The translations under genes were made by a program, and so were the position numbers. A stretch of DNA of 63,717 nucleotides, the filler included, from Globobulimina sp. (lineage: Eukaryota): the NCBI GenBank assembly GCA_003354225.1. It is 39 parts of 39 records of this genome, joined end to end, with 100 filler letters (N's around TTAATTAATTAA, not from the genome) between each part and the next. Parts side by side here need not be neighbours in the genome. Positions count along the whole stretch, not along the records: positions 42,558 to 44,093 come from PIVH01015157.1; 38 more parts are not named here. One strand, 5' to 3'. The notes below the pieces were generated by a model, which was given only the letters and a program-made list of their open reading frames with translations, did not search any database and was not told the origin of the DNA. Shown in pieces: positions 42,458-44,193 of this stretch. Position 1 is the stretch's first letter. Each line of letters begins with the position of its first letter.

Positions 42458-42558
42458 NNNNNNNNNNNNNNNNNNNNNNNNNNNNNNNNNNNNNNNNNNN
42501 NTTAATTAATTAANNNNNNNNNNNNNNNNNNNNNNNNNNNNNNNNNNNNNNNNNNNNT

Positions 42559-44073
42559 TATTTTTTACCAAATACCATGATTTTGACCAAAAATGGACTT
42601 AAACCAATAAGTGATATTAACGTTGGTGAAGAAATATTTTGTTGTAATTTTGATACTCATTCAGTGGAATTTGAAGCAGTAAGAAAAATAATAAAATCAC
42701 AAATTACACGATGGATTAATATTAAATTTAATAATGGTAAAAAAATACAATGTTCCTTGCATCAACCATTATTTTCTGTGCATCAAAATAAATGGTGTTC
42801 GTTCAGTGAATCAAATGATAAATCCGAAAATATTGGGAATCTAAATATTGGTGATTCTGTTTTATATTTTGATCGATATCAAATGGAAATGCAATCCGTT
42901 ATAATTACCGATGTTGAAGTTAATGAAATTCAGCATAACGATGTATTGGAAGTGATTAATATTGATTTAGAACATAATCATAATTATTTTGGAAATGGTA
43001 TTATTTTACATAATGCGATGCAAATATTCGTCAAAACATTAACTGGAAAAACCATTACTTTGGATGTTGAGCCAAATGAGATCATCCAAAATGTTACAGC
43101 AAAAATTGAGGATAAAGAAGGAATTCCGGGTGAACAACAAAGATTGATTTTTGCCGGAAAACAATTAGAAAACGGACGTTCTTTGAGTGATTATAATATT
43201 CAGAAAGAGTCTACGCTTCATCTTGTATTGAGATTAAGAGGCGGACGACATATTTTTGTTGATAATGTATTGCAAAAACATCGAGATTATGGTCAAGATG
43301 ATACATTAAAGACAGTTCAGGAATTTATTGCATTTTGGTGTAATGAATTAAAATGGAAACGCAATAAAATGAGAATTATAATCGATGGATTTCAAATGAA
43401 GGATAAACTGAATGCGAAATTGGATAAATTAGATTGGTGGTTACATTTAAAACCAATTCATATTGAAAATAGCAGAAAAAAATCAAAAACATTACGAAAT
43501 CATGAAATTATAGTTATTGATCAGAGTGCAAAATGTCGGACAGTGGTTACAAATGAAAATTGGAATATTGATAAAGTTCGAAATGAATTAAAAAGTATTA
43601 ACAACGATAATCCTCATTTTATTTATAATGGACAATATTTACATAACACAAAAACAGTGAAATCATATGATATTCCATCAAAAGCTCAGTTATTAATGGT
43701 TCCATCGGATAGGGGAGGAAATGTAATTCATTTTATGTCTTGGTTAAAATATGAAGATGAAAAAAAAGAATTTGATTCGAATGAATTAACTGTGGATATT
43801 TTACGTGAATCATTGAGTAAAACAAATGATAAAAAATTAGTAAATATTGCAATAGAGCGAGGAAAAGCAATTATTAATGACGCCAAAAAAGAAAATAAAG
43901 AGTTAAATAATATCAATGATGCAGCGTTGATTGCAATTAATTTATGGACCACAAATTTAGTTTATAGAAACGTTAATGCATCGTTGGAAAAAAAATATAA
44001 TTTAGAAATTTGGAAAATGTTTTTAAATTTAATCGATTATGGACTACGACAATTACCGTATCAATTAAGTTAG
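42559..44073 (+). CDS. Hint (BIL-like) - ubiquitin - Ubl - Ubl - ART polyprotein, partial
   Basis: Hint 42559-43014 ([26 protein letters not shown] ... [12 protein letters not shown]), Ala, ubiquitin 43018-43245, divergent Ubl (RHIFV...[10 protein letters not shown]), Ubl ending PSDRGG at 43719, and ART N-terminal helices [18 protein letters not shown]...[10 protein letters not shown]. The stop probably lies inside an intron (GT at 44058 or 44069). Confidence 0.88.
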
Positions 44074-44193
44074 GATTTATATTTATTTATGAANNNNNNN
44101 NNNNNNNNNNNNNNNNNNNNNNNNNNNNNNNNNNNNNTTAATTAATTAANNNNNNNNNNNNNNNNNNNNNNNNNNNNNNNNNNNNNNNNNNNN

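Follow-up and report, generated by a model that had tools for sequence, protein, structure and literature searches.

A polyprotein in which a Hint domain is followed by ubiquitin, two ubiquitin-like (Ubl) domains and an ADP-ribosyltransferase (ART) raises the question of whether the Hint domain can process it, and if so which bond is cut. Such a protein was proposed by a first-pass annotation, made from sequence alone, for positions 42558–44093 of a stretch of 63,717 nucleotides of joined Globobulimina sp. DNA (assembly GCA_003354225.1). This stretch is termed the window here, and all coordinates refer to it. The reading that we favour, and hold to be reasonably probable, is that these positions are an internal piece of an intact gene of the BUBL type, which joins a bacterial intein-like (BIL) Hint domain to ubiquitin, with an ART attached, and that its Hint domain, which carries Tyr at position 1, is a single-turnover module for C-terminal cleavage.

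The contig, its reading frame and its continuation

The window is made up of 39 contigs of 1535–1538 bp each, ordered by length and separated by linkers (N...TTAATTAATTAA...N). Positions 42558–44093 are exactly one whole contig of 1536 bp and, because the contigs adjoining it in the window are not its genomic neighbours, they provide no genomic context for the Hint-ubiquitin-ART gene. On the plus strand, which carries all of the features described below, one frame (42559–44070), beginning at the second base of the contig, runs for 504 codons without a stop. From the ATG at 42577 the count is 498 codons free of TAA and TAG, exactly as first annotated. The remaining five frames hold 26–73 stops each, and at the 27.5% GC of the contig, which falls within the 25–37% range of the window, 504 open codons would arise by chance with a probability of ~5e-23. 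TAA, TAG and TGA are all absent from the frame, and CAA and CAG account for all 22 of its Gln codons, which fits the earlier view that the gene uses a non-ciliate code. The data also fit the protist origin that was assumed for it.

A homology search with the whole protein returned 7614 matches dominated by polyubiquitins, as was a search of the PDB with the relative P0132. A search restricted to part of the protein identified P0122, a protein of 646 aa from Bolivina argentea (EukProt), which shares 58% identity with the frame throughout the portion after ubiquitin and has the order Hint tail-HN-A-ubiquitin-Ubl-Ubl(GKGG)-ART. Two longer relatives match the contig along its length. Residues 580–1079 of P0124, also from Bolivina, are colinear with 42559–44082 (E 1e-85), and residues 443–986 of P0126 give a comparable alignment (E 2e-84). 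When nine family proteins were compared with the window by tblastn, matches were confined to 42559–44091, and the missing exons were found in no other contig of the window.

Contigs from further data sets, labelled X1, X2, X3 and X6, bear on the integrity of the gene. X1 record 1 (961 nt, three differences) bridges 42644–43604, and X2 records 10 and 14 bridge 42677–43208 and 43181–44068, respectively. Upstream of 42558, X2 record 7 adds 621 letters and X3 record 15 adds 30; run X1 has zero cover over 42558–42609 and 44014–44093. The contig is thus the middle portion of a real gene that continues beyond both contig ends.

At the 3′ side, the frame of the window ends ...LRQLPYQLS*, whereas homologs read on as ...LPYxL(N/G/D)xxxYRG. 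Contigs from X2, X3 and X6, which represent two organisms and two studies, agree with the window precisely as far as 44068 and extend beyond it by 778, 682 and 608 letters, respectively. Moreover, five gene models of relatives break within a few residues of this site, and a sixth carries a 50-residue junk insert there. Taken together, the contig breaks, the continuation of the homologs and the gene-model breaks establish that a phase-1 intron (GTTAGG..., 44069–44093 in the contig) begins at 44069, and that the TAG at 44071–44073 is intronic and not a true stop. Read-through of an in-frame TAG, as a tblastn alignment of S*DLY with NKELY might suggest, was considered and set aside in favour of the intron from the contig breaks and the homologs. 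The expectation that the catalytic exon of the ART lies off the contig is supported by the intron and by homologs with a complete ART.

Could the arrangement be an artefact, whether an assembly chimera, a decaying pseudogene, or a ciliate or bacterial contaminant? The contig is very short, its assembly is highly fragmented, reads of canonical ubiquitin are heaped on 43026–43233, and the encoded ubiquitin shares no more than 84% identity with the canonical protein. Against these points stand the 504 open codons, the 22 Gln codons without TAA or TAG, which argue against a Tetrahymena-type code, a GT intron at a conserved position, which argues against bacterial origin, and a GC content within the range of the window. 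In addition, all module junctions are bridged by independent contigs, and Bolivina transcripts have the same module order. A chimera, for which the lack of reads across the junctions would have been the sign, is excluded for practical purposes by the colinear Bolivina homologs together with the bridging contigs, and an artefact of any of these kinds seems to us hardly credible.

The Hint domain and its N-terminal tyrosine

To describe the protein we number residues along the 504-residue frame that starts at 42559. A structure model of the frame (AF2) was built with 12 relatives and has a mean pLDDT of 81.0; model structures were compared with 48,161 PDB representatives using VIA. The model consists of an all-beta Hint domain, three successive beta-grasp patterns with equal element order and spacing, and seven helices. 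By Pfam, AF2, VIA and homologs alike, every module listed in the first-pass annotation is found at the place that it had been given.

The Hint domain occupies residues 1–152 (42559–43014), from Tyr1 at the contig edge to H151-N152, and resembles BIL domains. Pfam Intein_splicing matches residues 2–146 with E 5.8e-7, although its 29.9 bits fall under the cut-off of 35.8, and PT-HINT matches with E 0.0073. The best solved match by sequence is the BIL2 domain of Tetrahymena thermophila BUBL1 (6Y75/6TMM, E 5e-4), which aligns end to end. In structure comparisons the Hint model matches 6TMM with Z 19.2 (rmsd 3.4, 146 residues aligned, 22% identity), the Clostridium BIL domain 2LWY with Z 18.7 (rmsd 1.6, 133 aligned) and then mini-inteins, including the NpuDnaB intein with Z 18.5; across these three top folds 125–146 residues align. 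In the model, with pLDDT mostly 75–91, residues 1–152 adopt the horseshoe-shaped all-beta HINT fold. The expected Hint profile was recovered, if below its Pfam cut-off, and is joined by a clear fold match.

The two ends of this fold differ in the state of their catalytic motifs. Position 1 is Tyr (TAT, 42559–42561), where a Cys, Ser or Thr nucleophile would be expected, and block B reads CSLHQ in place of Thr-x-x-His, with Gln in the column of the His. The C-terminal motif is complete, comprising block F (HNHNYF), the penultimate His and the terminal Asn, N152. The next residue, Ala153 (43015–43017), occupies the +1 position after the terminal Asn and is not a nucleophile. It is followed directly by ubiquitin (HN-A-MQIF, 43009–43035), and as in BUBL proteins the Hint is therefore fused without a linker to a Ubl within a multi-Ubl polyprotein.

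Our alignment comprises 18 Hints of the family, among them that of the window and both Hints of P0124 and P0126. In 14 of the 18, Cys1 stands directly after Gly, and in 11 of these 14 it follows a ubiquitin tail in GG. The block-B His is present in 15 and the terminal HN in 17, and the Hint is joined to ubiquitin in 16, the other two being first Hint domains (Hint1) that precede a linker. Tyr1 combined with block-B Gln occurs in three members, namely the window Hint and the second Hints of P0124 and P0126, all of the foraminiferal group. The occurrence of Tyr1 in the same column of P0124 and P0126 indicates that it is no contig-end error, and because the Tyr1/Gln pattern is common to domains that are only 33–36% identical to one another, the loss of the N-terminal machinery must be old. 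In both homologs Tyr1 is preceded by Thr-Asn, the corresponding residue of the window gene lying beyond the contig start; judged from these two proteins, the RGG before position 1 that marks the activated junction of BUBL is missing from the Tyr1 subtype. The +1 residues of the three domains are A, T and A (window, P0124 and P0126).

P0124 and P0126 each carry a further Hint upstream (residues 388–560 and 231–390, respectively). Both of these first Hints have Gly-Cys1, with a C-terminus of HN-G in P0124 and HT-G in P0126, and ~60–90 residues separate them from the Tyr1 Hint.

Two other types of Hint protein were considered for the window domain. A true splicing intein is rejected, because Ala stands at +1, the flanking parts are domains of their own (ubiquitin on the downstream side and, in the homologs, a linker or a Ubl on the upstream side) and an endonuclease is absent. 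Hog Hints, which mediate sterol transfer, start with Cys1 and lack the terminal Asn, the opposite of what is seen here, and this reading is rejected as well.

The description of the protein as self-processing holds in part. Since Tyr1 and the block-B Gln have replaced the N-terminal catalytic residues while the C-terminal motif is intact, established intein chemistry makes C-terminal, Asn-mediated cleavage the only plausible activity of the Tyr1 Hint, and ligation of ubiquitin in the manner of BIL2 would not be expected; the N-terminal half of self-processing lacks its nucleophile. Mutant inteins are known to cleave at the C-terminus although the N-terminal steps do not take place.

The comparison with BUBL1 defines what has changed. 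BUBL1 likewise places an endonuclease-free HINT domain between Ubls, with a His-Asn end directly before a Ubl, and its BIL2 structures (6TMM/6Y75) are deposited under the molecule name NAD(P)(+)--arginine ADP-ribosyltransferase, so that an ART is likewise present in the same protein. The earlier remark that BUBL genes are known from Tetrahymena was correct and can be taken further, as the combination with an ART was already known there as well. According to two reports, BIL2 lies between ubl4 and ubl5, and its C1 and H69 serve thioester formation and isopeptide ligation, by which the upstream Ubl is ligated to lysines without ATP (PMC8616854; PMC9200820). BIL2 thus has Cys1 after RGG and a block-B His (H69), whereas the window Hint has Tyr1, a block-B Gln and a +1 Ala. 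Furthermore, BUBL1 is a ciliate protein, and the window gene has foraminiferal nearest relatives and standard Gln codons.

The Tyr1 Hint might nonetheless act as BIL2 does, activating the upstream domain through an ester or thioester linkage for ATP-free ligation to lysine by means of an alternative nucleophile, as with the internal Cys of class-3 inteins. BIL2 is the best solved match, in Tyr1 Hints a conserved Trp is followed by Cys (KWCSF, NWCSL, KWCKI), and some inteins are known to begin with a residue other than Cys, Ser or Thr (PMC2807308). This Trp-Cys pair, however, is also found in the Cys1 Hint1 domains of P0124 and P0126, which marks it as a trait of the lineage and no obvious substitute nucleophile. 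Block F is without Cys, the block-B His has become Gln, and Thr-Asn precedes Tyr1 in two homologs, in contrast to the Gly that precedes all 14 Cys1 Hints. On this evidence we judge a BIL2-like activity to be very improbable.

A second alternative is that the Tyr1 Hint is dead at both ends and serves a structural or docking role, in which case the polyprotein would stay uncut and its ubiquitin and Ubls would be regulatory, targeting or degradation signals acting in cis on the ART. Both N-terminal catalytic positions are indeed lost in three of three members of the subtype. The His-Asn end and block F are nevertheless strictly kept in these three domains despite their low overall identity. In a domain without function such motifs should decay, a process that has started in the first Hint of P0126 with its HT terminus. 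This account, on which the ubiquitin region bears as well, seems to us rather unlikely.

The ubiquitin units and the ART

Residues 154–229 (43018–43245) form a ubiquitin of 76 aa, MQIF...LRLRGG, that matches Pfam PF00240 with E 9.2e-31 (105.9 bits versus a cut-off of 25.4) and is identical to a canonical polyubiquitin unit at 64 of 76 positions. K6, K11, K29, K33, K48, K63 and R42 are retained, and Lys27 is replaced by Thr. The module superimposes on ubiquitin structures with Z 16.1 and rmsd 1.0 (VIA). Over the ubiquitin core (43026–43233), depth in X2, X3 and X6 rises to ~1e5, from short contigs that are 90–95% alike, a spike that is most simply explained by canonical ubiquitin transcripts cross-mapping to this locus.

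The next unit, Ubl1, spans residues 230 to ~309 (43246–43485) and is a divergent member of the beta-grasp fold that does not end in GG. It had no match in the Pfam scan and is recognized from the AF2 model, whose elements (E232–234, H253–264, E271–275, H292–295 and E300–304; pLDDT 83–92) follow the pattern of ubiquitin. Ubl2, residues ~314–387 (43498–43719), has the elements E315–320, E326–331, H337–345, E352–356 and E376–382, matches Pfam ubiquitin (E 5.8e-4) and Rad60-SLD (E 4.4e-4) below the respective cut-offs, and ends in DRGG (G386, G387). When the structure model of P0122 (mean pLDDT 83.5) was compared with solved structures by Foldseek, linear tri- and tetra-ubiquitin aligned over 244–252 columns with E 4e-21 to 3e-18.

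Both of the RGG sites at which deubiquitinases had been proposed to act are present in the window, although the family treats them unequally. The GG after ubiquitin is found in the window and P0122 alone, two of six relatives with that ubiquitin. After Ubl2, GG occurs in 11 of 13 relatives, with Gly-Ala in the other two; G386 is invariant in the 13 sequences, and a conserved xxLxFMSWL follows. Judged by its sequence, a cut after LRLRGG is possible in the window protein, even though the GG is not conserved there in the family. The patchy retention of the first GG and the resemblance of the three beta-grasp units to a linear ubiquitin chain are what would be expected of an uncut polyprotein, and are the remaining points in favour of a Hint that is dead at both ends.

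Around the end of ubiquitin some length variation is seen. At 43239–43240, contigs of a related organism (organism B) carry six (X2) or three (X3) extra bases, equivalent to one or two added Gly, and P0122 from Bolivina reads LRLRGGG at this place.

The remainder of the frame, residues 388–503 and the first base of codon 504 (43720–44068), corresponds to the N-terminal, all-helical half of an ART of the R-S-ExE type. Pfam ART gives no match on the window's own open reading frame, and the assignment comes from alignment with residues 286–401 of P0122, corresponding to ~116 of ~221 ART-fold residues, with helices between 387 and 498. In P0122, PF01129 matches residues 318–505 at 29.4 bits against a cut-off of 22.3, and 11 further relatives match at 26.1–51.4 bits; proteins with a Pfam ART above the cut-off include P0122, P0124, P0126, P0130, P0131 and P0132. 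The P0122 model, from just after the Ubl2 GG to residue 506, matches 6DRH_B with Z 20.1 (rmsd 2.7, 181 aligned), XopAI with Z 19.8, HopU1 with Z 19.7 and rat ART2.2 with Z 18.4, and its catalytic residues occur in the expected order, Arg407, Ser433 and Glu473-x-Glu475. The helices that were taken in the first-pass annotation for the start of an arginine-type ART are therefore borne out by the ART fold of this 58%-identical homolog. The catalytic half is covered by seven relatives, of which all have the Arg, six the Ser/Thr and six the ExE; the window holds none of these residues, since those of its own gene lie beyond the contig. P0127 lacks the ART Ser and Glu-x-Glu (SFFKD and ELKQ at these sites), has retained the Arg and the receiver-like domain described below, and may by its sequence be an inactive member of the family.

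In a full scan of 1.84 billion representatives, 72 matches reached E ≤ 0.001. The best-matching stretch ends past the Ubl2 GG in 23 of these, and the other 49 match the Ubl2 part only, mostly with several repeated stretches as in polyubiquitins (P0106 is named ‘ubiquitin’). The nearest named relatives are proteins of the Foraminifera Bolivina and Nonionella that have a complete ART and a receiver-like C-terminal domain, and no named ciliate protein was found in the 432–1378-residue range. Full-length relatives extend further than the contig on both sides, with a Cys1 Hint and Ubls upstream and, after the ART, a (beta-alpha)5 domain of ~135 residues. In P0122 this conserved domain (residues 508–646, VVxWVDDNPxNN...RIVTDM...) has the look of a CheY-type receiver; its support from profiles is below threshold (Response_reg E 0.039 and 6e-4; Atlas score 0.90), and none of the best 50 structure matches of the P0122 model, by VIA or by Foldseek, corresponds to it. 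The Ubl-ART core is also found joined to two MIB_HERC2 domains (P0134, Nonionella) or to IBR (P0144), and by itself in Clydonella, an amoebozoan (P0181). Thus the ART has repeatedly been tied to ubiquitin-ligase modules. Proteins combining a Cys1 Hint, ubiquitin and an ART are common among environmental contigs.

A model for processing and its place among known systems

Combining the contig with its homologs, the full protein would comprise one or more upstream Ubls, a Cys1 Hint, a linker, the modules seen here, the intron position, the catalytic half of the ART and the receiver-like domain. In the mechanism that we propose, the Tyr1 Hint would form no N-terminal thioester, in which it would depart from Tetrahymena BIL2; Asn152 would cyclize and the N152|A153 bond would be cut, which would free Ala-ubiquitin-Ubl1-Ubl2-ART-receiver. 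A second cut, made by a protease at the GG on the Ubl2/ART border, would then free the arginine-type ART. We favour this border as the protease site because its GG is nearly invariant.

Several points weigh against this mechanism. We know of no natural Tyr1 Hint for which C-terminal-only cleavage is described. The Pfam score of the Hint is below the gathering cut-off, and Ala at +1 would leave a non-native N-terminus on ubiquitin, whose own GG is kept in only two of six relatives. The title of a 2019 paper by Chiarini reportedly calls the ART-associated Ubl of Tetrahymena ‘non-conjugatable’, which would count against the freed Ubl modifiers that were first envisaged. The catalytic exon of the ART is seen in homologs and not in the window gene, both cleavage and ART activity of the window protein are predictions from sequence, and X2, X3 and X6 are not on record as RNA, so that their status as RNA is a guess.

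The arrangement has parallels in bacterial polymorphic toxins, in which a BIL or pretoxin-HINT domain of the same fold stands N-terminal to a releasable C-terminal effector. In some of these toxins the effector behind the Hint is an ART (PMC3482391). In contrast to them, the window gene has a eukaryotic host, an intron, and ubiquitin and two Ubls between Hint and ART, and its 1536-bp contig shows no secretion or immunity partner.

On the side of the transferase, the P0122 fold matches R-S-ExE ARTs (PF01129; ART2.2, HopU1, XopAI and Tre1) with Z 18.4–20.1 up to residue 506, and ART2.2, HopU1 and XopAI also have an N-terminal helical part that matches window helices 388–503. The fusion with ubiquitin, Ubl, Hint and receiver-like domains is absent from ART2.2, HopU1, XopAI and Tre1. 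The mono-ART of the SidE family of Legionella is a ubiquitin-directed enzyme of the R-S-ExE type. It offers a likeness that we treat as a lead only, namely an ART tied to ubiquitin, together with the retention of Arg42 in the ubiquitin fused here. Unlike in SidE proteins, no phosphodiesterase domain is present here, and no SidE structure is among the best 50 structure matches of the P0122 model, which are mostly other ARTs and ubiquitins.

Our literature search, which did not take in the original BUBL papers, found no description of such genes in Foraminifera or Rhizaria; a Hint of the Tyr1 type, or this very order of domains, may already be described in those papers. The BUBL architecture with an ART is in itself not new; what is new is the group of organisms in which it occurs and a Hint of distinct predicted mechanism. 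The part in immunity, conflict or cell death that had been suggested is speculation.

None of these results overturns current knowledge. They take the BIL-ubiquitin-ART polyprotein beyond ciliates, with its nearest named relatives in Foraminifera, and ADP-ribosylation and ubiquitin seem to be connected in protists widely and in modular fashion. The Hint with Tyr1 and block-B Gln, apparently a natural cleaver that acts at its C-terminus only, may be of use for studies of Hint evolution and for protein engineering. A more ambitious idea, which we consider quite unlikely, is that the ubiquitin-coupled ARTs of protists constitute a system independent of E1 and E2, in which the Cys1 Hint would charge and ligate a Ubl, the Tyr1 Hint would provide a one-shot release, and the freed, receiver-gated ART with its ubiquitin tag would ADP-ribosylate ubiquitin (for example at Arg42) or proteins of the ubiquitin pathway. 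If true, Legionella SidE would have in such proteins a counterpart from free-living eukaryotes, from which its ubiquitin-directed mono-ART chemistry might even derive.

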